Sequence record: OZ346189.1
DNA length: 64,000 nucleotides
Direction: 5' to 3' (one strand)
Source: a phage
Made by a program: the position numbers and the translations under genes. The notes beneath the pieces are model-generated. The model did no database searches. It was not told the origin of the DNA and was given only the letters and a program-made list of their open reading frames with translations. This document shows positions 10,290-25,429 of the stretch, piece after piece. Within the stretch, counting starts at the first letter, position 1; each line of letters begins with the position of its first letter.

Positions 10290-10678
10290 TGAAAAATATT
10301 TGGGATATCGATATCTTTGAAGCCTCTAAGCTTGACGGTGCTGATGGAGTGATTATGGTGTCTGATGGCAAGGCAACACTAACTTCCGGAGATATCATCT
10401 ATGCCTTGGACGAGCTGGCGCTTCTGAAATCTACCGGTAACACTTTGGAGGAGCGTCTTCAAGGATTCGCTTTCAAAGAAGGTACAAATACAGCCATGAT
10501 GTGCACCACACGGACAGTTCAGGTTGGTAACGGTGTCTATATGATTATTGCTGTGTGTCCTAAATTCAGCAACGTCAACAAAGATGATGCTGACGCGGTC
10601 AACGATGTGGTTGTTCTCTTCGTGGGTGACGCTATGGCAGATCTGATGAATGCAGGAGAAGCAGCAAATGAAGACTGA
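10286..10678 (+). CDS. hypothetical protein
   Basis: 130 aa; overlapping start/stop with neighbours. Confidence 0.5.
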   Translation: MMKNIWDIDIFEASKLDGADGVIMVSDGKATLTSGDIIYALDELALLKSTGNTLEERLQGFAFKEGTNTAMMCTTRTVQVGNGVYMIIAVCPKFSNVNKDDADAVNDVVVLFVGDAMADLMNAGEAANED

Positions 10679-12923: not shown

Positions 12924-12951
12924 GCCCTGCCCGAAAGGGTGGGGCATTTTT
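12924..12951 (+). terminator. rho-independent terminator
   Basis: GCCCTGCCC-GAAA-GGGTGGGGC + ATTTTT; second copy of the 1541 terminator. Confidence 0.6.
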
Positions 12952-16519: not shown

Positions 16520-17040
16520 GCCAGATATTTTAAAATTCTTAGAAAATCAGAAAATGGATCGAAAACTAAAATGGATTTTTCAAGACAGGCACGATAAGAT
16601 GTGCTGCTCATTCTATCGTTCGCACCGTACTTTAAGTCACTATTCCAGATTTTTCCGCACATACTCTCACCCTTCTACCAGAACTTTCCCAGCTTACCTC
16701 TGACCTTTTATAACAATAAGTCCATTATTATCAGAAAGTTTCGGCACATCTCTTTCGGTACTCGATCTGTTTTTCATTTCAAAGACCTGATTTTCTGAAA
16801 ATTTTTCTCGATAAATTTCTTAGTACTCGATCTGTTTTTCGTTTTCTGAATCGGATTTTCTGGAAATCGTTCCAGCCCTCGACCTGAAATTTTTGGGGAC
16901 GAAATCGATTTTTCGTTTTCAGAAATGGATTTTTAAAATTTCTATATGGGAATATTTTATGGGATACTGTTTTATAGGAAATTGTTACGGAGGGTAATTA
17001 GCATGCTAATTAAATTTATTAAATGCGAGGAGTTCTCATT
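16520..17040. repeat. AT-rich non-coding region with direct repeats and an 18-bp perfect palindrome
   Basis: GTACTCGATCTGTTTTTC at 16758-16775 and 16823-16840, related CTCGACCTGAAATTTTT at about 16876; repeated AAAATGGAT; palindrome TAATTAGCATGCTAATTA 16995-17012. Confidence 0.5.
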
Positions 17041-18388: not shown

Positions 18389-18416
18389 TTGACACGCTGC
18401 AAAATTCAAGTAAACT
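18389..18416 (+). promoter_or_regulatory. sigma70-like promoter
   Basis: TTGACA 18389-18394, 16-nt spacer, TAAACT 18411-18416; followed by leader hairpin 18427-18445. Confidence 0.5.
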
Positions 18417-18464
18417 AGTCACAAAAGGCGGGAATGTTTCCCGCCAACACAAAGGAAAAAGATC

Positions 18465-18869
18465 ATGAATAAGAACGTACGCCGCATCATGAACGAACTG
18501 GCAAACGATGAAAAAATTATTGACATGCATTTGATCAACATTTGCCGCCGTTGTGTAACATATAACAACCGCGCCGCAAAAGCGCGTGAGATGAACGCAA
18601 AAGGCACCTTAAAGCCATTCCAGGTGGTGGTAAAGGCCATTAAAGATGTAGCTAATACGGCAAACCAGGTACAGGGGAACACCAACGAGAGTACCAATAT
18701 TGATCCGGCTTACATCATGAAACGGATCCGGACCTGCAAGAACAAAGAGCAAGTGTATAATGTCATAGACTGGTTGGATTCTATGGGCGATGTGGTGTAC
18801 AATAGATTCTCGGCAGCTATTGAGATCCAGCTTGACAGGTTAGACGGTAAAGTACTTAAAACTTACTAA
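18465..18869 (+). CDS. hypothetical protein
   Basis: 134 aa; AAAGGAAAAAG SD. Confidence 0.55.
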   Translation: MNKNVRRIMNELANDEKIIDMHLINICRRCVTYNNRAAKAREMNAKGTLKPFQVVVKAIKDVANTANQVQGNTNESTNIDPAYIMKRIRTCKNKEQVYNVIDWLDSMGDVVYNRFSAAIEIQLDRLDGKVLKTY

Positions 18870-18870
18870 A

Positions 18871-18915
18871 TTTATTTTTAGATGGCCTTGACTCCAGGGC
18901 CATCAATAAAGTAAA
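18871..18915 (+). repeat. 45-bp post-gene hairpin element, copy 1
   Basis: TTTATTTTTA-GATGGCC-TTGACTCCAG-GGCCATC-AATAAAGTAAA; stem 18881-18887/18898-18904; directly after stop codon. Confidence 0.6.
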
Positions 18916-18949
18916 TTAATCTCAGCTAAGCGAAAAAGGGGGCTTTAAG

Positions 18950-19069
18950 ATGAGCACTACACGCCAATACACAAAGGTAACTATTATCGCCTGCGTTGTC
19001 GGTTACATCCTGGCGCAAATGTTAATGAGTAGCGCTAACAGTTTTGCAAAATTTTTCTTAAATTTTTAA
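18950..19069 (+). CDS. small hydrophobic protein (39 aa)
   Basis: ATG 18950 after AAAGGGGG SD; MSTTRQYTKVTIIACVVGYILAQMLMSSANSFAKFFLNF; below ORF-track size cutoff. Confidence 0.4.
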   Translation: MSTTRQYTKVTIIACVVGYILAQMLMSSANSFAKFFLNF

Positions 19070-19097
19070 TTGACAAGCTAACTTAGATTGATATACT
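19070..19097 (+). promoter_or_regulatory. sigma70-like promoter
   Basis: TTGACA 19070-19075, 16-nt spacer, TATACT 19092-19097. Confidence 0.55.
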
Positions 19098-19148
19098 TAA
19101 ACACGTAAACGGGAAAACTTCCCAGAACACACAAAAGGAGAAAACACC

Positions 19149-19490
19149 ATGACTACTATGACCGCCGCAGAAAAAGCTATTCAGATCGCCGCACTGAAAA
19201 AACAGATCGCAGACCTTGAGAACAAGATCGATAACTTTGAAATCGACGAGGACAAGTACGACGAAAACTATGATGAATGGTTAGACGAGATCTACGGCGA
19301 AATTATGATCGGAAACATTTCTTTTCTTCCGTCGCGTATCCTCAAGGAGCTAGATCCTATCACTTACCGCTGCGGATTTAGCGACTACATCGACAGCCTG
19401 GATATTGAGGACGATGAAGAATACCAGGAATTACAGACAGAGTTAGAAGAAGCAAAAGAAGAGCTTGCAGAACTGGAAGAAAACGAGTAA
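19149..19490 (+). CDS. highly acidic protein (candidate DNA mimic)
   Basis: 113 aa, about one third Asp/Glu with predicted coiled-coil N-terminus; AAAAGGAGAA SD. Confidence 0.55.
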   Translation: MTTMTAAEKAIQIAALKKQIADLENKIDNFEIDEDKYDENYDEWLDEIYGEIMIGNISFLPSRILKELDPITYRCGFSDYIDSLDIEDDEEYQELQTELEEAKEELAELEENE

Positions 19491-19492
19491 GA

Positions 19493-19536
19493 TTATTTTT
19501 AGATGGCCTTGACTCCAGGGCCATCAATAAAGTAAA
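19493..19536 (+). repeat. 45-bp post-gene hairpin element, copy 2
   Basis: Identical core to copy 1; stem 19502-19508/19519-19525. Confidence 0.6.
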
Positions 19537-19579
19537 CTTTATACTGTTAACACTGAACTAATGCATAGGAGTTAAAACC

Positions 19580-19825
19580 ATGGCAGCACTAATCACCAAA
19601 TATTATGCCCCTACCAACACCAAAAGCGCCCGTATCATGGTAAAAGGCTTCGGACGTAAAAAGGTGTACACCTGGGATTATGCCTTAGACACGGAAGACA
19701 ACTACACCAACGCGATGACCGATTTTATTAATGATCTGAACACGCGGATCTTGACAAATTATAAAATTACCGATATTGCCTATATAGGGGAAGGCGGGAT
19801 CTGTTTTGTCGGTATCGTCAAATAA
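19580..19825 (+). CDS. hypothetical protein
   Basis: 81 aa; TAGGAG SD. Confidence 0.5.
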   Translation: MAALITKYYAPTNTKSARIMVKGFGRKKVYTWDYALDTEDNYTNAMTDFINDLNTRILTNYKITDIAYIGEGGICFVGIVK

Positions 19826-19900
19826 GCTGTTTTTTCGGTGGTCCTGGTAGCAGGGCCATCTATAAAGATAGTTTATCAATACAATGAAAGGAGAAAGTAC

Positions 19901-20254
19901 ATGATCAGCGGGGCAAGTTTTATTATTGGCGCTATTGCTACGGCTTTAATTGTAAACAAGATCCAATCTAAAAACGAAAAAGATAGCAACGCCCTTACAG
20001 AATACCCGTTTTGGGTATTCAACGACAATGAAGACTATATTATCAAGTACAAGAATGAGAAGGGCGACCAGGTAACACCGCGACCGATCCCGGCTTACAA
20101 GATGCAAGAAACACTATACCGCCTAAAGGCTGGAGGCGCAAAAATCGTAGACTTTTGGGGATACGATCACACAGATCAGGAAGTTATAAAGCGCCGTATC
20201 CGGGCTATTCAGGCCAATATTGAAGTTAGCAAGGGGGGAATATATGAAGATTAA
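19901..20254 (+). CDS. membrane-anchored protein
   Basis: ORF track 19838-20254; ATG 19901 after AAAGGAGAAAG; N-terminal TM helix ASFIIGAIATALIV. Confidence 0.5.
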   Translation: MISGASFIIGAIATALIVNKIQSKNEKDSNALTEYPFWVFNDNEDYIIKYKNEKGDQVTPRPIPAYKMQETLYRLKAGGAKIVDFWGYDHTDQEVIKRRIRAIQANIEVSKGGIYED

Positions 20255-20441
20255 TTTTGAGAAGATTGTAAAGCGATCTCATGCTTCCGAAGAGCTGCCG
20301 GAACGCCGCCAGCGCAACAATAAACTGAATAAGCCAAAAAGATTTGGGAAGATCTGGCGGAATCATTATGATCGCAAATTACCGGGCCTGCTTTTGGAAC
20401 GTGAACGACAGGCGGAACGATACCGCCACAAAGGCAAATAA
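20244..20441 (+). CDS. small basic protein
   Basis: ORF track 20220-20441; ATG 20244 after AAGGGGGG; Arg/Lys-rich. Confidence 0.45.
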   Translation: MKINFEKIVKRSHASEELPERRQRNNKLNKPKRFGKIWRNHYDRKLPGLLLERERQAERYRHKGK

Positions 20442-20449
20442 CAACCAAC

Positions 20450-20474
20450 GCCCCGCCATTGTGCGGGGCTTTTT
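20450..20474 (+). terminator. rho-independent terminator
   Basis: GCCCCGC-CATTGT-GCGGGGC followed by TTTTTATTT. Confidence 0.65.
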
Positions 20475-20622
20475 ATTTCTATCCTACGAATAGCGCCCCC
20501 GGTTGGCCCTGTAAGCGCCAAAAAGGCCCCACCTATGCAATCGCCCCCCTTTAACCTGAAAACATCGCTTAGGGCCGTTTTATGGCGTTAAAAATATCAT
20601 TGATAGTGATTTTATTTAAAGC

Positions 20623-20650
20623 TTGACATCTTAAACAGGTTAGCTATACT
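20623..20650 (+). promoter_or_regulatory. sigma70-like promoter
   Basis: TTGACA 20623-20628, 16-nt spacer, TATACT 20645-20650. Confidence 0.55.
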
Positions 20651-20682
20651 AACCACATCAAAGAGAGAAAGGAGTAAACGCC

Positions 20683-20943
20683 ATGCGTAAATTAAAAAAT
20701 TTTGATAAAGTTGATGTTGTCCTGAATAATTTTTACTACTGCAACAACAAGGCCATTTGGTGGCGTGATAGTTCCACCGATAAAGTCAAGGCGCGCTTTC
20801 TCCAGGGGCACTGGCAAGGCCGTCCAGTGATTAAAATCATGGGGCAATTGGTAGCGTTTAAAAATTGCCGCCGTGTTGATGACGTTGAGGAGATTTTAAA
20901 CATTTTGCGCCACAATAATTTAAAAAATAGTGTTGACAAGTAA
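20683..20943 (+). CDS. hypothetical protein
   Basis: 86 aa; AAAGGAG SD. Confidence 0.5.
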   Translation: MRKLKNFDKVDVVLNNFYYCNNKAIWWRDSSTDKVKARFLQGHWQGRPVIKIMGQLVAFKNCRRVDDVEEILNILRHNNLKNSVDK

Positions 20944-20960
20944 ATCTCAATAAGTATAAT
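20933..20960 (+). promoter_or_regulatory. sigma70-like promoter
   Basis: TTGACA 20933-20938 (overlaps upstream stop), 16-nt spacer, TATAAT 20955-20960; leader hairpin GGCGGGAAAACTTCCCGCC 20971-20989. Confidence 0.6.
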
Positions 20961-21017
20961 TAAACACACAGGCGGGAAAACTTCCCGCCACTAACAAAGA
21001 AAACAGGAGAAAATATC

Positions 21018-21641
21018 ATGACCACCGTTAACATTACCACAGGTTACAATTTAGCTTTCGACGTGCTGACCGACGAACAAAAAGAAAAAGCCGTTGAAAT
21101 GGTCCGCGAAAGAGAAGAACACAGCGGGGATAACTTTTTTGCAGAAAGTGTAATTGAAGACTATAAAGAATATATCTTTCCAGAGTATGGCCTTGAAGAT
21201 ACCGAAGTACATTGGTCCGGCTTTTGGTGCCAGGGCGACGGCGCATCAATCAGTGCGGAAAACGTGGATTTAGAAAAATTCTTGCGTAAAGTCAAGTCTC
21301 TGACTAAATTCCGCTCAATTCGTCACTTGTTCGGCACAATGCACGATGGCGAGCTATCCGCAAGTGTTGAGCGCGATCCATATAGCCGTTATAGTCACGA
21401 AAACACTGTAAGCGGGTACATCGATACTACATGGCTAGACCTGACCGCCAAACAAGAAAACAAAGTGGAAGACCTGGAAGAACTGATCACCGAGACGGTA
21501 CGGGAGCTATCCCGCAAGGTTTACGTAGACCTGGAGGAGGCCTATCTAGAACAGTTCACCGCAGAAAACCTGATCGGCCTTATCGAGGCCAATGATTGGC
21601 GGTTTGATGTCGATGAATATGGTGAGATGACTTTTTCATAA
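21018..21641 (+). CDS. acidic hypothetical protein
   Basis: 207 aa; ACAGGAGAA SD; Asp/Glu-rich. Confidence 0.55.
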   Translation: MTTVNITTGYNLAFDVLTDEQKEKAVEMVREREEHSGDNFFAESVIEDYKEYIFPEYGLEDTEVHWSGFWCQGDGASISAENVDLEKFLRKVKSLTKFRSIRHLFGTMHDGELSASVERDPYSRYSHENTVSGYIDTTWLDLTAKQENKVEDLEELITETVRELSRKVYVDLEEAYLEQFTAENLIGLIEANDWRFDVDEYGEMTFS

Positions 21642-21731
21642 ATAAAGTGTTGCAATAGCCTAAAAACCTGCTATATTAAAACTCAAGGGGGCAAGACGTT
21701 TGCCCCCACACAAAACAAAGAGGAAAACATC

Positions 21732-22112
21732 ATGAAAAACACTACTAAAGCTATTGACACTGTTATGTTTAACCTGGTTACATTCCGTGAAGATATGAAA
21801 GATCTTCCACGTGAAACAGTGTGCGATCACATTGAAAACTATCGCAAACTAATCAAAGAGTTGCCTTTAAAACGTGACCAGTATGCGGCTAACGCTATGC
21901 TTAACGCCATGATCAAAAAGATGATTCAGTGTGATTTAACTCTGGCCTATGATTATGCAGGTGGTCGTTTTGCAGTATACAATCAGCCCGTGCCTGGTAT
22001 GAGCACCACCGAAGAATTGCACGCGTTAAATCTGAAACAAGATGTATGGGATAACATGCCCCGCGTGGTGGTGTGGGCAGAAAGCGGAAAGATTTACGGC
22101 GATAATTTTTAA
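21732..22112 (+). CDS. hypothetical protein
   Basis: 126 aa; AAAGAGGAA SD. Confidence 0.55.
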   Translation: MKNTTKAIDTVMFNLVTFREDMKDLPRETVCDHIENYRKLIKELPLKRDQYAANAMLNAMIKKMIQCDLTLAYDYAGGRFAVYNQPVPGMSTTEELHALNLKQDVWDNMPRVVVWAESGKIYGDNF

Positions 22113-22122
22113 TCAGGTAACA

Positions 22123-22148
22123 GGCGGCATATTTGCCGCCTTATTGTT
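22123..22148 (+). terminator. rho-independent terminator
   Basis: GGCGGCA-TATT-TGCCGCC followed by TTATTGTT. Confidence 0.5.
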
Positions 22149-22176
22149 AAACAGAACTGCAAAAGAGGTACATAGA

Positions 22177-22548
22177 ATGGAATTTATTATTTTGGCTGTA
22201 GTAGTTGCCTTGTTCAACGCCTGGATCGCTGGCAAGATAGGTAGATCCGCTTTTCTATGGTTTGTTATATCTATTTTCCTGGGAGTGGTTGCAACTATTG
22301 TATTGGTTATCCTTGCAATTGTTGACAAGGGCGATAATAGAAAGGGTAAAGTGTTTTCCGACCTGTATGACGCACAAACGTTTGTCAACGCCTATTATAG
22401 TGATCTTCCAGTCTCCCTACGCTGCAGCCTGGCACAACAGGTTTTTGATGAGGCTAAAACCAGAGACCAAGCCCATGAGATATGTTTAACTGAAGCGGAT
22501 CGCCTATTTGAGAGGAATAGAAAATATGTGGACCAGCCGTTTAAATAA
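22177..22548 (+). CDS. membrane protein
   Basis: ORF track 22042-22548 spans the terminator; ATG 22177 after AAAGAGGTA; two TM helices (FIILAVVVALFNAWIA, FLWFVISIFLGVVATIVLVILAIV). Confidence 0.5.
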   Translation: MEFIILAVVVALFNAWIAGKIGRSAFLWFVISIFLGVVATIVLVILAIVDKGDNRKGKVFSDLYDAQTFVNAYYSDLPVSLRCSLAQQVFDEAKTRDQAHEICLTEADRLFERNRKYVDQPFK

Positions 22549-22658
22549 CGCCACGTTAATTAATCCCTTTAGTGAAGATTTGAAGCCAGCCGCCTGGCGT
22601 GACGGATTCAATAACGAACGCTTTATTTTCAGGCCTGATCTTGAGGAATTTTATAACA

Positions 22659-22784
22659 ATGGATCGAACAACAGCGGAGATAATTTTTCTTGTGGTGTGC
22701 GTGGTGATAGGACTCCTGGGGGCCATTGTAAACCACGTCACTACTAACAGGAGGGAAGGGGGAGACGATGACAACCAAGGATAA
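22659..22784 (+). CDS. small membrane protein (uncertain)
   Basis: ORF track 22599-22784; ATG 22659; TM segment IIFLVVCVVIGLLGAIV; competes with overlapping ORF 22508-22747. Confidence 0.3.
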   Translation: MDRTTAEIIFLVVCVVIGLLGAIVNHVTTNRREGGDDDNQG

Positions 22785-22891
22785 GCCATGCGCTGATAAG
22801 GTGCGCCGTGTTATGGTATGGCTTGAGATTATCGCCCTTGAAATATTGTTAGGCGTAGGGATGTACTTTATCGCTGTAAGTAACTAAGAGC

Positions 22892-22920
22892 GGCCCCCGA
22901 TCATGGGGGCCTATCTTTTT
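22892..22920 (+). terminator. rho-independent terminator
   Basis: GGCCCCC-GATCAT-GGGGGCC followed by TATCTTTTT. Confidence 0.65.
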
Positions 22921-22942
22921 AAAAAATTTTTCTTCCGGGGTG

Positions 22943-22970
22943 TTGCAATCCGGTCCGGAATGTGGATAAT
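22943..22970 (+). promoter_or_regulatory. sigma70-like promoter
   Basis: TTGCAA 22943-22948, 16-nt spacer, GATAAT 22965-22970; leader hairpin 22981-22995. Confidence 0.45.
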
Positions 22971-23026
22971 AACAATCAACGGGGAGCTAATCCCCACCAC
23001 CACAAAAACCAGAAAGGAGAAACAAA

Positions 23027-23227
23027 ATGAGCAACAATATCCGCGTTATTAACTTCAAAAAAGAAGAAAAAATTGCCGTGCTGATTGACGGTCAAGAAAT
23101 CTTCAAGGGCGACTATGAAGATCATCAAACGGCGATTAGTATCACTCGCGTGATTGGTTATCATAATTTCTACCCCCAAGGCGCTGAGGCAGCAGTTAAA
23201 CGAATCAAAGAGATTGTAGGCCTGTAA
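23027..23227 (+). CDS. hypothetical protein
   Basis: 66 aa; AAAGGAGAA SD. Confidence 0.5.
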   Translation: MSNNIRVINFKKEEKIAVLIDGQEIFKGDYEDHQTAISITRVIGYHNFYPQGAEAAVKRIKEIVGL

Positions 23228-23230
23228 AAT

Positions 23231-23274
23231 TTATTTTTAGATGGCCTTGACTTCAGGGCCATCGATAAAGTAAA
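23231..23274 (+). repeat. 45-bp post-gene hairpin element, copy 3
   Basis: TTATTTTTA-GATGGCC-TTGACTTCAG-GGCCATC-GATAAAGTAAA; two substitutions relative to copies 1-2. Confidence 0.6.
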
Positions 23275-23320
23275 TTTAAACCCTGTTAAAATACCACGCA
23301 GTTAACAAGGAGTGATAGAC

Positions 23321-23620
23321 ATGTTTATCCAGGCTAATAATCTTTATTTCTTTGATGGTCAGATCGTAGATGGTGTGGAAGTGGAGATCACCGGGTGCCC
23401 TGGCGGTCAGGCTATGACTTTTCGGAATAATGCCTTTGATGATTCTCATATCGTTATGAGAATGGAAGTTACGAAGCTGGACGACAAGAAAACACTTATT
23501 GACTATTCTGTGAAAGATCATCCAGACTACCGCATGATCCATGGTGATTTGTGCATTGTTGACCGTGACAAGGTGGGCGGCATTGTGATCGCTATTGTGA
23601 ACGATGTTTTCTCAAACTAA
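23321..23620 (+). CDS. hypothetical protein
   Basis: ORF track 23312-23620 (GTG); ATG 23321 after AAGGAG SD. Confidence 0.5.
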   Translation: MFIQANNLYFFDGQIVDGVEVEITGCPGGQAMTFRNNAFDDSHIVMRMEVTKLDDKKTLIDYSVKDHPDYRMIHGDLCIVDRDKVGGIVIAIVNDVFSN

Positions 23621-23637
23621 TTTCAGCAGGCGATTTT

Positions 23638-23988
23638 ATGAAAGTCAAACTATATTACCTTAATGAGCTTAACCCCCTTGCCCAGGTCCGCGCCCTAGCT
23701 AATACCTTGATTTGTGAGAAATCTGTATATTGTGTTGAGCTTAACGCCATGCGTGAACGTCTCAAAGGTGGTTACTTTGACATCCATGCTGCAATCAACG
23801 GCCTGAATATGGAATTTATACGCTTACGTAACAGCCGCCGGAATCTGGCAAGAATGGAACAAGATCCGGCCCACCTTCGTAAGCTGGTTATTGAAAATCA
23901 TCTGATGTTTAATGCCGAGGGTGATTATTACCATTTTCACCGCAAACGCTGGTACCGTGGCGGCAATACAGGCAAGAATGCAAAATAA
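23638..23988 (+). CDS. hypothetical protein
   Basis: 116 aa; weak SD. Confidence 0.45.
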   Translation: MKVKLYYLNELNPLAQVRALANTLICEKSVYCVELNAMRERLKGGYFDIHAAINGLNMEFIRLRNSRRNLARMEQDPAHLRKLVIENHLMFNAEGDYYHFHRKRWYRGGNTGKNAK

Positions 23989-24023
23989 GGCCCCTAGCAG
24001 GGCCTGCAGCAATATAATCACAT

Positions 24024-24057
24024 AAAGGCCATGCGGTTGCATGGCCTTTATTATTTT
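24024..24057 (+). terminator. rho-independent terminator
   Basis: Perfect 11-bp stem AAAGGCCATGC-GGTT-GCATGGCCTTT followed by ATTATTTT. Confidence 0.7.
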
Positions 24058-25025: not shown

Positions 25026-25054
25026 TTGACAACAGCCATCTTACAAAGCATAAT
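25026..25054 (+). promoter_or_regulatory. sigma70-like promoter
   Basis: TTGACA 25026-25031, 17-nt spacer, CATAAT 25049-25054; leader hairpin GGCGG...CCGCC 25061-25079. Confidence 0.55.
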
Positions 25055-25106
25055 ACATAAGGCGGTGGAATGGTCCGCCACCTGGAACAAAGAAGAGGTA
25101 AACACC

Positions 25107-25352
25107 ATGAAAAGCAATAAAGGTTATAACGGTTACAAAAACAAAACTCATTGGAATGTAAGCCTTTGGATTAATAACGATGAGTCATTGTACCGGTTGG
25201 CCCAAGGCTTTATTAACGCCAATGCTAATCGTAATGATGCGGCGCGGGATATGATGCTTTTTCTGGAGCTAACCGGACAAGATAAGACCCCGGACGGCTT
25301 CAAGTACAGCACTACGGCGATCCGTGCCGCGATGGTTGGAATGAAACACTAA
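25107..25352 (+). CDS. hypothetical protein
   Basis: ORF track 25026-25352 starts in promoter; ATG 25107 after AAGAGGTAAA. Confidence 0.5.
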   Translation: MKSNKGYNGYKNKTHWNVSLWINNDESLYRLAQGFINANANRNDAARDMMLFLELTGQDKTPDGFKYSTTAIRAAMVGMKH

Positions 25353-25429
25353 AAGCACATAGCTGCCTTACCCTGGGGCTGTGGTAGCGGCCCCATGAAT
25401 AAGGTTACTAACAGAAGAGAATAAACACC

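Follow-up and report, generated by a model that had tools for sequence, protein, structure and literature searches.

Four hairpins in the early operons of a Vequintavirus (rV5-like) coliphage, whose host is E. coli, probably serve as RNase III processing signals that would cut the multi-gene early messages of the phage. This reading is based on structural modelling and on comparison with phage T7. The hairpins were found in a stretch of DNA of 64,000 nt, referred to here as the window. Selection acts on the hairpin structure in the sense-strand RNA, the structure is conserved across the genus, and the element resembles the RNase III sites of T7.

The element and its genome setting

An earlier note on this DNA had reported a triplicated element, its copies almost identical and always located directly after a stop codon. 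The three near-identical copies are confirmed. The core GATGGCCTTGACTCCAGGGCCATC occurs on the + strand at 18881-18904 and 19502-19525 with 0 mismatches and at 23240-23263 with 1 mismatch, and it has 0 matches in 100 dinucleotide shuffles. The TAA stop of a + strand ORF opens each of these copies (ORFs 18465..18869, 19149..19490 and 23027..23227), in line with the note. The total of three has to be revised, as an extra diverged copy that is 68% identical is present at 19822-19876 and opens at the stop codon of ORF 19580..19825. The copies are numbered in Table 1, where site 4 is the third copy of the earlier note and site 3 is the diverged one. The bit scores are 81.1 for site 1 on the + strand versus 39.3 on the - strand, 79.1 for site 2, 72.1 for site 3 and 80.5 for site 4.

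All copies lie within early operons equipped with consensus promoters and U-tract terminators of their own. A homologue of T7 gene 1.1 (20244-20441; PF08200, 41 bits) is also encoded in the operon of sites 1-3. The next start codon is about 26-45 nt downstream of the hairpin, which does not cover the ribosome-binding site. No informative domains were found in the ORFs that flank the copies.

Table 1. Coordinates of the hairpins, their parts, the operon of sites 1-3 and the predicted cuts
Feature	Position	Strand	Details
Site 1 (copy 1), full extended hairpin	18866..18920	+	TAA of ORF 18465..18869 at 18867-18869
Site 1, lower stem	18869-18878		paired with 18908-18917
Site 1, internal loop	18879-18880 (5' side), 18905-18907 (3' side)		
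Site 1, upper stem	18881-18890		paired with 18895-18904
Site 1, tetraloop	18891-18894		ACTC
Site 2 (copy 2)	19487..19541	+	architecture as site 1; stop of ORF 19149..19490 at 19488-19490
Site 3, diverged copy (family D1)	19822..19876	+	stop of ORF 19580..19825 at 19823-19825
Site 4	23225..23279	+	architecture as site 1, loop ACTT; stop of ORF 23027..23227 at 23225-23227
Operon of sites 1-3	18389..20469	+	three hairpins separate its first cistrons
Near-consensus sigma-70 promoters of this operon	18389-18416, 19070-19097	+	
Canonical terminator of this operon	20450-20469	+	GCCCCGC...GCGGGGC then TTTTTATTT
Predicted RNase III scissile bond, site 1, 3' strand	18906..18909	+	between U18907 and A18908 (...GGCCAUCAAU, then AAAG)
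Predicted equivalent bonds, sites 2, 3 and 4	19528/19529, 19863/19864, 23266/23267		

RNA structure

The element had been described with a 7-bp stem and with TTGACT in its loop. The upper stem is actually 10 bp, including a U.G pair, with a closing loop of 4 nt. Within TTGACTCCAG the loop consists of ACTC, and TTG belongs to the stem, so the hexamer is located only partly in the loop. The T-run pairs with the A-rich AAAGTAAAT tail and forms a second helix of 10-13 bp, therefore the unit is an extended sense-strand RNA hairpin of ~50-55 nt. From the base upwards it consists of a lower A/U stem of 10 bp, an internal loop (2x3), an upper G+C stem of 10 bp and a tetraloop.

On the + strand, each of the four copies adopts one common two-helix hairpin, with dG between -22 and -28 kcal/mol and z between -5 and -7.4 (site 1, dG -22.7, z -5.9; site 2, dG -22.3, z -6.0; site 3, dG -28.2, z -7.4; site 4, dG -24.7, z -5.0). 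The antisense strand folds less well, and for site 3 hardly at all (dG only -9.2, z -1.7). The hairpin is retained in a 295-nt context, where the pair probabilities of site 1 are 1.00 in the upper and 0.95 in the lower stem. For site 2 in long context the upper stem has a probability of 1.00 and the lower stem of only 0.42. Site 3 has the upper stem GGTGGTCCTG/CAGGGCCATC with two G.U pairs, the loop GTAG and a lower stem of 13 bp; it has no TTGACT, nevertheless the hairpin structure is retained.

Conservation and covariation

Conservation in related genomes, which the earlier note had left to be checked, was found. The same four early intergenic sites are occupied in the eight related genomes examined, except for site 1 of Gotham, and their order is unchanged in all of them. 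The whole genome of rV5 has exactly four copies, and the element is present in 121 Vequintavirus records. Site 1 of Gotham is destroyed by a 5-nt deletion, therefore at least that copy is dispensable.

An alignment of 37 copies from 10 sources was used to study covariation. Pairing is seen in 97.6% of cells versus 34-56% when the partners are slid. Two-sided compensatory changes occur at four lower-stem pairs. The variation in the upper stem is limited to wobble-preserving changes; because this stem hardly varies, the support for its pairing comes from wobble changes and not from full covariation. U10.G46 is invariant across all copies and U23.G32 across all copies of sites 1, 2 and 4, and both are pairs on the sense strand only. 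The number of variable columns is 2/80 in the upper stem, 10/80 in the lower stem, 7/16 in the tetraloop and 159/728 in the flanks (upper stem versus flanks, p = 2.7e-6). A41 and U42 are invariant in 37/37 copies. Half of "TTGACT" lies in the tetraloop, whose sequence varies freely (ACTC, ACGC, ACAC, ACTT and ATTC; GTAG, GCTG, GTGG and GTTG).

Comparison with the RNase III sites of phage T7

The closest known system is the set of T7 signals R0.3, R0.5, R1, R1.1 and R1.3, and also R4.7, R6.5 and R18.5. Like these, the copies form a paralogous set of hairpins between cistrons of early messages that the host RNA polymerase synthesises in E. coli. Both have a 10-bp G+C upper stem and tetraloop above a weaker lower stem of 8-10 bp. 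They share an asymmetric internal loop with a 3' side longer by one nucleotide, a loop-closing pair underlain by U-A and U.G, and an 'AU' before the cut, which is predicted here. Like T7 R0.5, R1, R4.7 and R18.5, they also begin at the stop codon of the upstream ORF. However, close sequence homology is absent, and compared with T7 the arms that contain GGCC seem to have changed places. The element has a 2x3 internal loop where T7 has a 4x5 loop, the lower stem of the element is a regular A/U duplex, and its pb1 and pb3 depart from the R1.1 optimum. A further difference is that the phage is a 137-kb myovirus that encodes no RNA polymerase of its own, and cleavage is only predicted in this case.

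A covariance model trained only on T7 R0.3, R0.5, R1, R1.1 and R1.3 was run with filters off against both strands of the 64 kb. The top four matches in the window are the four copies, all on the sense strand, full length and in register. Their scores are 23.3-25.3 bits with E-values, which are rough, of about 1e-3 to 3e-3 (site 1, 23.3; site 2, 25.3, the best in the window; site 3, 24.2; site 4, 23.5), and sites 1, 2 and 4 are near-identical, so their scores are not independent observations. Genuine T7 late sites outside the training set score 44.4, 44.2, 24.8 and 14.1 bits, a range that includes the four copies, and the T7 background does not exceed about 14 bits. Across 0.8 Mb of rV5 and unrelated viral DNA, scores of at least 23 bits were reached only by the rV5 copies. 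The reciprocal search is weak, as the model of the element finds only T7 R18.5 (11.7 bits, E 7.5).

RNase III cleavage, the precise bond that is cut and an effect on mRNA stability are predictions from these features. The cut was placed by counting 11 helix positions from the tetraloop and adding a 2-nt overhang, following published rules (PMC1540722). RNase III requires 11 bp between loop and cut (PMC1540722), and the element reaches this distance with 10 pairs and a single non-canonical position separating loop and predicted cut. The alignment to the T7 model sets the T7 cut, between uAU and gA, on AAU and AA of the element. The distal box has U-A and then U.G under the closing pair in 3/4 copies, exactly as in R1.1. 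In 3/4 copies pb2 is A-U; pb4 is non-Watson-Crick, as in native R1.1, and the free tetraloop sequence is compatible with RNase III. At pb1 the element has U-A where G-C is preferred, and at pb3 G-C where A-U is preferred; substitutions at pb1 and pb3 weaken binding in a minimal substrate (PMC1540722). Site 3 may be a poor substrate because it carries C-G at db2 and G.U at pb2, where a purine 2-amino group is an antideterminant. By an in vivo rule (PMC6212723), the two cut positions should have at least one G-C pair between them; the element departs from this rule, and T7 single-cut sites likewise do.

Alternative explanations

The earlier note listed several candidate functions without choosing among them. 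The list is partly supported, and the evidence favours the RNase III site, which fits a two-helix sense-strand RNA with compensatory changes, matches to the T7 model, and the rules for distal box and distance. A sigma-70 promoter with an UP element, as the sole function or superimposed on the RNA hairpin, is possible, if doubtful. The -35 would be TTGACT and the -10 TAAATT or TAAACT with an 18-bp spacer, AAATTTATTTT upstream would be the UP element, and a start ~7 nt downstream of the element would raise expression of the next gene. A promoter scan does list TTGACT-18-TAAAYT at 18888-18917, 19509-19538 and 23247-23276; however, these 9/12 matches are of the lowest grade listed, which is common by chance in the region (55 found versus 31.8 expected), and the real promoters of the region have 10-12/12 matches with 16-17-bp spacers. 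AAATTTATTTT fits the distal half of the UP consensus, reportedly AAAWWTWTTTT, at about the right spacing, and the spacing of about 26-40 nt to the next start codon is plausible. PhagePromoter predicts promoters at the site 2 and site 4 copies of Gotham, whereas the element is omitted from the curated promoter list of the rV5 authors. In sites 1, 2 and 4 the loop positions A26 and C27, within TTGAC, are less variable than 28-29, yet in phage Aya the hexamer has decayed to TTTACT and TTGATT, and site 3 lacks it but still has the hairpin. Promoter function leaves the compensatory lower-stem changes, the sense-only G.U pairs and the strand asymmetry unexplained, and a 10-bp G+C inverted repeat across the -35 element and spacer is atypical of promoters. 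Sites 1, 2 and 4 might still act secondarily as weak promoters. A structural RNA that acts without RNase III is unlikely, even though it shares the structure and covariation evidence with the RNase III reading. A stable intercistronic hairpin could block 3'-to-5' exonucleases or 5'-end-dependent RNase E scanning and give individual cistrons segmental stability, or it could be a roadblock or pause signal. REP-type and similar 3' stabilisers of E. coli are stable intercistronic hairpins that can protect upstream mRNA from 3' exonucleases, and a hairpin of -22 to -28 kcal/mol straight after a stop codon has this look. However, REP-type stabilisers have no defined endonucleolytic signal and lack the two-helix, internal-loop and distal-box geometry of the element. 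A simple stabiliser needs no second A/U helix, no conserved internal loop exactly 10 bp below the tetraloop, no invariant A41/U42 and no U-A/U.G distal-box pairs, and the T7 model would be unlikely to single it out over the equally stable hairpins of the region. The AU-rich flanks, which RNase E requires single-stranded, are base-paired, so the RNase E site proposed in the note is also disfavoured.

A binding site for a phage-encoded or host protein is very unlikely. The hairpin could be an RNA operator bound by a translational or stability regulator, or GATGGCC-N10-GGCCATC could be a DNA operator at which a dimeric repressor would block access to the embedded -35 element. The upper-stem sequence, above all its 3' arm together with CAGGGCCATC-N-ATAAAG, does not vary in 37/37 copies including the diverged paralogue and is conserved beyond what pairing alone demands. 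However, the loop, the usual specificity determinant for hairpin-binding proteins, varies freely, the hairpin lies upstream of the next start codon and leaves the ribosome-binding site uncovered, and no candidate binding protein was found among the flanking ORFs. The DNA form of this suggestion is disfavoured because the half-sites of site 3 are asymmetric (GGTGGTC versus GATGGCC) in exactly the way that preserves RNA pairing via G.U while breaking DNA symmetry. PeSL (promoter-early stem-loop) cassettes have been described in T4-type phages (RB49/phi1, PST and nt-1) (PMC2839356, PMC4122927), and it is highly improbable that the element is a mobile regulatory cassette of this kind, mainly a recombination substrate that shuffles early genes between phages. 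Both are short, repeated, composite and intergenic in plastic early-gene regions, with a stem-loop and sigma-70-like promoter motifs. The copies are near-identical repeats in an early region that is hyperplastic, similarity to RB49 genes is seen in several early ORFs of rV5, the sequence just downstream of site 4 has been locally replaced and alleles differ upstream of site 3. However, the PeSL stem-loop is a terminator upstream of a near-consensus to near-perfect promoter (PMC4122927), and the element has no U-tract and overlaps only a weak, 9/12 promoter-like match. PeSLs mark indel junctions, whereas the identity-switch points and the indel at 23617-23977 are scattered across the region and do not fall on the four copies, which are fixed at orthologous sites in the same order in all genomes examined and are not enriched at mosaic junctions. 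The D5 repeat family, a promoter plus hairpin, better matches the PeSL description. An intrinsic (rho-independent) terminator is scarcely credible, in agreement with the earlier note. The element does contain a strong G+C hairpin, and in the record of phage Murica the positions homologous to sites 3 and 4 carry 45-nt features annotated as 'terminator'. However, neither strand has a U-tract after the hairpin (3' flanks: AAUAAAGUAAAU sense and UAAAAAUAAAU antisense), the copies are inside operons and not at their ends, and a terminator scan that finds canonical terminators nearby at 20450, 22892 and 24022 does not list them.

Proposed role in early gene expression

As RNase III processing signals, the copies would be transcribed by host RNA polymerase within early polycistronic mRNAs, and each would fold in the RNA into a ~50-nt hairpin roughly two helical turns long. 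RNase III is predicted to cut on the 3' side of the hairpin, 3' of the invariant AU (between ...GGCCAUCNAU and AAAG), and a cut on the 5' side is also possible. The cut would separate the upstream cistron from the following one, and the upstream message would be left with a stable 3'-terminal hairpin that may shield it from 3' exonucleases. RNase III processing of this kind would be a mechanism that is familiar from phage T7 and previously undescribed in the rV5-like phage group.

Structure and genomic setting of the element

The repeated element in the early region of the window is a two-helix RNA hairpin that is present in four copies. The earlier note had described three nearly identical copies, in the regions of 18871, 19493 and 23231, and had placed them directly after a stop codon. 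All three copies are found (sites 1, 2 and 4), and each of them starts at the TAA of a plus-strand ORF. A further copy, site 3, was returned by the repeat finder. Its identity is 68%, and a stop codon stands at its start as well, so that this position is common to all four copies. A 24-nt core, GATGGCCTTGACTCCAGGGCCATC, is exact or nearly exact at three of the sites, and shuffled sequence gave zero matches to it. A covariance model made from the four copies (the element model), run on both strands of the window with the filters off, recovered exactly four copies, which score 72-81 bits on the plus strand versus 31-46 bits on the minus strand.

On folding, the T-run and the AAAGTAAAT tail turn out to base-pair with each other instead of being loose flanks. 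What had been described as a 7-bp stem is an upper stem of 10 pairs, U.G included, on a lower stem of 10-13 A/U-rich pairs. The two are separated by an internal loop of 2 nt on the 5' side and 3 nt on the 3' side, and the hairpin is closed by a tetraloop. The folding energy of the sense strand is -22 to -28 kcal/mol (z -5 to -7.4). The antisense strand folds worse, and the diverged site 3 is essentially unfolded there (-9.2 kcal/mol, z -1.7). In a 295-nt context the pair probability of the upper stem is ~1.0 in all copies, and that of the lower stem is 0.42 at site 2, against 0.95-0.97 in the other three copies. The base of the lower stem includes the stop codon, and we infer that a terminating ribosome would melt the hairpin.

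Coordinates of the element and of neighbouring features in the window
Feature	Position	Strand	Remarks
Site 1	18866..18920	+	24-nt core exact at 18881-18904; predicted cut 18907/18908
Site 2	19487..19541	+	24-nt core exact at 19502-19525; predicted cut 19528/19529
Site 3	19822..19876	+	diverged; repeat-finder copy 19824-19873; predicted cut 19863/19864
Site 4	23225..23279	+	24-nt core with one mismatch at 23240-23263; predicted cut 23266/23267
Promoters of the unit with sites 1-3	18389; 19070
Terminator of the unit with sites 1-3	20450
65-aa ORF, T7 gene 1.1 family	20244-20441		PF08200; in the operon of sites 1-3
ORF upstream of site 4	23027..23227
Two-allele stretch	~23290-23320		30 nt directly downstream of site 4
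Polymorphic ORF	23638..23988		presence/absence region 23617-23977
Perfect 13-bp hairpin	24022-24051		rV5 10376-10432
Extended hairpin	25365-25405	sense	shortly after ORF 25026..25352
Repeat family D5	19070-19135; 20933-20998		promoter and hairpin cassette
Repeat families D4 and D7	16748-16933		three tandem-like copies
Repeat family D11	1541-1567; 12924-12950		terminator-like hairpin

The element is located in an arm of small early genes, all of which lie on the plus strand in the window. This early region has many near-consensus sigma-70 promoters (10-12/12, with 16-17-bp spacers) and several canonical U-tract terminators. The element belongs to neither class; it is a third kind of signal, located inside operons. 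Sites 1-3 part the first cistrons of a unit that runs from two promoters to a terminator, and site 4 lies between two ORFs. In T7, the RNase III sites R0.5, R1, R4.7 and R18.5 likewise begin a few nucleotides from the upstream stop codon. The product of one ORF in the operon of sites 1-3 falls in the T7 gene 1.1 family (41.2 bits, cut-off 21, E 2.3e-10) and is 47% identical to T7 gp1.1 over 30 aa. Its orthologue is labelled 'T7 gp1.1-like' in the Murica record. T7 gene 1.1 is located directly downstream of R1.1, and its homologue here is a circumstantial link to the T7 early region.

Distribution and annotation in related phages

The window is 94-96% identical to Vequintavirus (rV5-like) coliphages. 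The element is conserved in related genomes: it occupies the same four orthologous intergenic sites in seven relatives, and three copies are intact in an eighth, Gotham. The complete rV5 genome has exactly four copies, every one in the sense orientation. At site 1 of Gotham (MT682716, 1143-1190) five nucleotides (GGGCC) are missing from the 3' arm of the upper stem, which abolishes the hairpin and cuts the spacer of the putative promoter to 13 bp. The deletion may have knocked out this copy naturally, or it may be a sequencing error.

A sensitive BLAST search with the element as sole query returned 121 Vequintavirus records and nothing convincing elsewhere. Seventeen records named 'Campylobacter phage' (C. 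jejuni host, MG0656xx) also contain the element and match this coliphage region at 91-97% identity; they look like rV5-like coliphages that were submitted with a different host name. When viral contigs were scanned for GATGGCC-N10-GGCCATC and for GGGCCATCNATAAAG, the only matches were single and due to chance; they lay in unrelated contigs, which were of use solely as negative-control DNA. A search of IMG/VR anchored on the upstream coding sequence gave just one Vequintavirus contig. Rfam has no family for the element; the sole overlapping match was the rhtB sRNA, which scored 23.1 bits (E 4.3), below the gathering score of 55.

The annotations in the databases are computational and contradictory. 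The element is labelled 'terminator' at sites 3 and 4 in Murica (KT001917). In Gotham it is a 'promoter predicted by PhagePromoter' at sites 2 and 4, with an 8-nt TATAAAGA call at site 3, and in rV5 (NC_011041) it is left without annotation. The element is not among the 33 promoters and 20 terminators given in the rV5 genome paper (PMC3606486).

Selection on the RNA structure

The paired structure of the sense RNA is under selection. Since the element is confined to Vequintavirus in the BLAST search, covariation rests on paralogues and close orthologues rather than on a deep comparative series. In 37 sense-strand copies from ten sources, which are closely related sequences fitted to the model with near-identical copies at sites 1, 2 and 4, 97.6% of the cells are standard pairs, versus 34-56% when the partners are slid by 1-3 columns. 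Two-sided changes occur at four pairs of the lower stem (A-U/G-C, U-A/C-G, U-A/G.U or A-U, and A-U/U-A), and the sole variation in the upper stem consists of transitions that retain pairing via G.U. Two pairs that can form in the sense RNA only are invariant, U10.G46 in every copy and U23.G32 in every copy of sites 1, 2 and 4. Among orthologues, 2 of 80 columns vary in the upper stem, 10 of 80 in the lower stem, 7 of 16 in the tetraloop and 159 of 728 in the flanks (upper stem versus flanks, p = 2.7e-6). The variability of the stems compared with the tetraloop indicates constraint on the stem, with a loop sequence that is free to vary.

Comparison with the T7 RNase III sites

The element is built like the classical T7 early RNase III processing signals. 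Folding of the five T7 early sites (R0.3, R0.5, R1, R1.1 and R1.3) gave a consensus in which a 4x5 internal loop separates the lower stem from a 10-bp upper stem that ends in a loop; the coordinates used for folding are those of Dunn and Studier 1983. A covariance model trained on these five sites alone (the T7 model) was used to scan both strands of the window with the filters off. Its top four matches are the four copies, all of them full length, in the sense orientation and with the helices in register, at 23.3-25.3 bits and with rough E-values of ~0.9e-3 to 3e-3. The antisense strands of the copies were not among the matches in the window. In the alignment the T7 cleavage context, uAU/gA, sits on the invariant AAU/AA of the element.

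On the whole T7 genome this model recovered late sites on which it had not been trained, R18.5 (44.4 bits), R4.7 (44.2 bits), R6.5 (24.8 bits) and R3.8 (14.1 bits), and missed R13; the non-site background was at most ~14 bits. In 0.8 Mb of rV5 and unrelated viral DNA, scores of at least 23 bits were confined to the rV5 copies and the best unrelated match reached 21.5 bits. The reciprocal search, with the element model on T7, gave only R18.5 at an insignificant 11.7 bits. What the element shares with T7 is therefore its architecture and a few key positions, without close sequence homology. Homology to the T7 stems themselves (GGCC cores with swapped arms) was set aside on the result of this reciprocal search.

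RNase III determinants and predicted cleavage

The substrate requirements of E. coli RNase III have been described by Pertzev and Nicholson (2006, PMC1540722). A helix of 11 bp extends from the scissile bond to the tetraloop, and no particular tetraloop sequence is needed. The distal box is U-A then U.G, and the middle box has 2 bp. In the 4-bp proximal box, pb1 is G-C and pb3 is A-U, both positive determinants measured in a minimal substrate; pb2 and pb4 are A/U, G/C blocking binding at pb2 and catalysis at pb4 (PMC1540722). A substrate of the R1.1 type is an intramolecular helix of about two turns (~20-22 bp) on the transcribed strand; the element has 10 + 10 (up to 13) pairs on the sense strand. 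Counted from the loop, sites 1, 2 and 4 have the closing G-C, then U-A, U.G, C-G, C-G, G-C, G-C, U-A, A-U and G-C, followed by a non-canonical A x A or A x G. The 11-bp distance is thus present as 10 standard pairs and one non-canonical position (A x A, A x G or C x U), and the free loop sequence among orthologues agrees with the indifference of the enzyme to the tetraloop.

At sites 1, 2 and 4 the distal box is U24-A31 and U23.G32, identical to R1.1, with the positions of this box assigned to R1.1 nucleotides by deduction from the numbering in the text of PMC1540722. Both distal-box pairs, one middle-box pair and pb2 are as in R1.1 at these three sites. The antideterminants of the proximal box are avoided, pb2 being A-U at sites 1, 2 and 4 and pb4 being non-Watson-Crick at all four sites, as in native R1.1 (U.C). 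The optimum of this box is absent, with U-A at pb1 and G-C at pb3 in all four copies, and natural T7 sites likewise deviate from it. Since pb1 and pb3 are positive determinants and natural T7 sites deviate too, a lower affinity would be expected and cleavage would not be precluded. The distal box of site 3 is U-A and C-G; with C-G at db2 and G.U at pb2, site 3 is predicted to be a weaker substrate. In vivo, a G-C pair between the two cuts is preferred (PMC6212723). The element does not have this pair, but the preference describes double-cut stems and not the single-cut internal loops of the T7 type. Counting 11 positions and a 2-nt overhang, the cut would fall after the invariant A41-U42 in each copy.

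Possible functions of the element

The most likely mechanism, and one that we consider probable, is T7-type RNase III processing of early polycistronic mRNA. RNase III was one of the candidates in the earlier note, and it is favoured by the matches to the T7 model, the two-helix sense RNA and the agreement with the determinants. Cleavage of the element and the consequences of cleavage are both putative; a search of the literature found no transcript mapping or RNase III work on Vequintavirinae. A hairpin that stabilises the message independently of RNase III is less likely, as it would not explain why there is a second helix and a fixed internal loop, nor would it explain the distal-box pairs or the specific T7-model matches. 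A protein operator is disfavoured; the invariant 3' arm and N-ATAAAG are slightly more conserved than pairing needs, but the loop is free and the asymmetry of site 3 preserves only RNA pairing. An operator in DNA was rejected, as this asymmetry is compatible with RNA pairing alone. An RNase E site, also proposed earlier, was rejected because the AU-rich flanks are paired. The opinion that the element is not a canonical terminator was correct, and intrinsic termination was rejected: a T-run follows the hairpin on neither strand and the terminator scan was silent. PeSLs are terminator stem-loops upstream of a near-consensus early promoter and are tied to indel or replacement junctions (PMC4122927). 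The geometry of the element differs from such cassettes, and a sliding identity profile did not show junctions concentrated at the copies; a PeSL-like recombination cassette was not supported.

The copies at sites 1, 2 and 4 may have a sigma-70 promoter as an added function. All three contain TTGACT-18-TAAAYT (9/12), AAATTTATTTT agrees with the distal UP consensus, and PhagePromoter calls two copies in phage Gotham. The hexamer TTGACT is -35-like, as had been claimed, but only its last bases lie in the loop and it is not conserved; TTGACG, TTGACA, TTTACT or TTGATT is found in relatives and the hexamer is missing at site 3. A T51/C51 change in the putative -10 is compensated in the stem. Matches of 9/12 are frequent by chance in the early region, and a promoter would leave the strand-specific structure, the covariation and site 3 unexplained. 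It is unlikely that the element is a dual-use cassette, in which the RNase III hairpin would be combined with an UP element and with promoter hexamers, the -35 lying in the loop region and the -10 in the 3' strand of the lower stem. The hairpin of such a cassette would end and stabilise the upstream message, and the same 50 bp would make transcription start anew a few nucleotides downstream; extrusion of the hairpin and binding of RNA polymerase might then exclude each other. If true, it would be a compact cut-and-restart punctuation unit and a functional cousin of PeSLs, with processing instead of termination.

Neighbouring repeats and hairpins

Other repeats and hairpins were observed in the window. 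D5 is a second repeated intergenic cassette, with a near-consensus sigma-70 promoter (TTGACA-16-TATACT or TATAAT), ~20 nt, a short G+C hairpin GGGAAAACTTCCC and a ribosome-binding site in that order. It looks like the PeSL promoter/stem-loop cassettes known from T4-type phages, or like a hairpin that stabilises an mRNA at its 5' end. The perfect 13-bp hairpin, ATAAAGGCCATGC-GGTT-GCATGGCCTTTAT, is followed by TATTTTGG and is terminator-like according to the scan. It is the next-best match of the T7 model (17.7-18.7 bits on both strands, 17 bits in rV5), with arms close to the T7 upper stems (AAGGxCAU...UGGCCUUUAU), and it may serve as a terminator, as a fifth processing site or as both. In the extended hairpin (-25.4 kcal/mol), a 2x2 internal loop joins a lower stem of 6 bp to a G+C upper stem of 10 bp that contains one bulge; a tetraloop closes the hairpin and AAUAAGG follows it. 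Its architecture is like that of the element, yet neither the element model nor the T7 model matched it.

A T-rich repeat of 47-50 nt (GTACTCGATCTGTTTTTC...GATTTT) makes up families D4 and D7; its three copies lie 65-74 nt apart in a part of the early arm that has no convincing ORFs. The two D11 copies, each a canonical terminator-like hairpin GCCCTGCCCGAAAGGGTGGGGC followed by a T-run, are 96% identical and 11.4 kb apart. Two alleles exist for the stretch next to site 4. The polymorphic ORF is present in the window, isim, Murica and DrSchubert and absent in rV5, Aya, phita32 and V18, a clean presence/absence polymorphism.

Implications for the rV5-like phages

The rV5-like myoviruses have ~120 sequenced genomes and are widely used in therapy and biocontrol. 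The analysis resolves a contradictory annotation in which the same element is a promoter in one record, a terminator in another and blank in the type genome. The four predicted cleavage bonds are precise enough for direct testing. If the RNase III reading is true, T7-style punctuation of early mRNAs would extend from small podoviruses to this large group of myoviruses. The presence of a gene 1.1 homologue in the same early operon suggests that this operon may share regulatory logic or ancestry with T7-like early regions.
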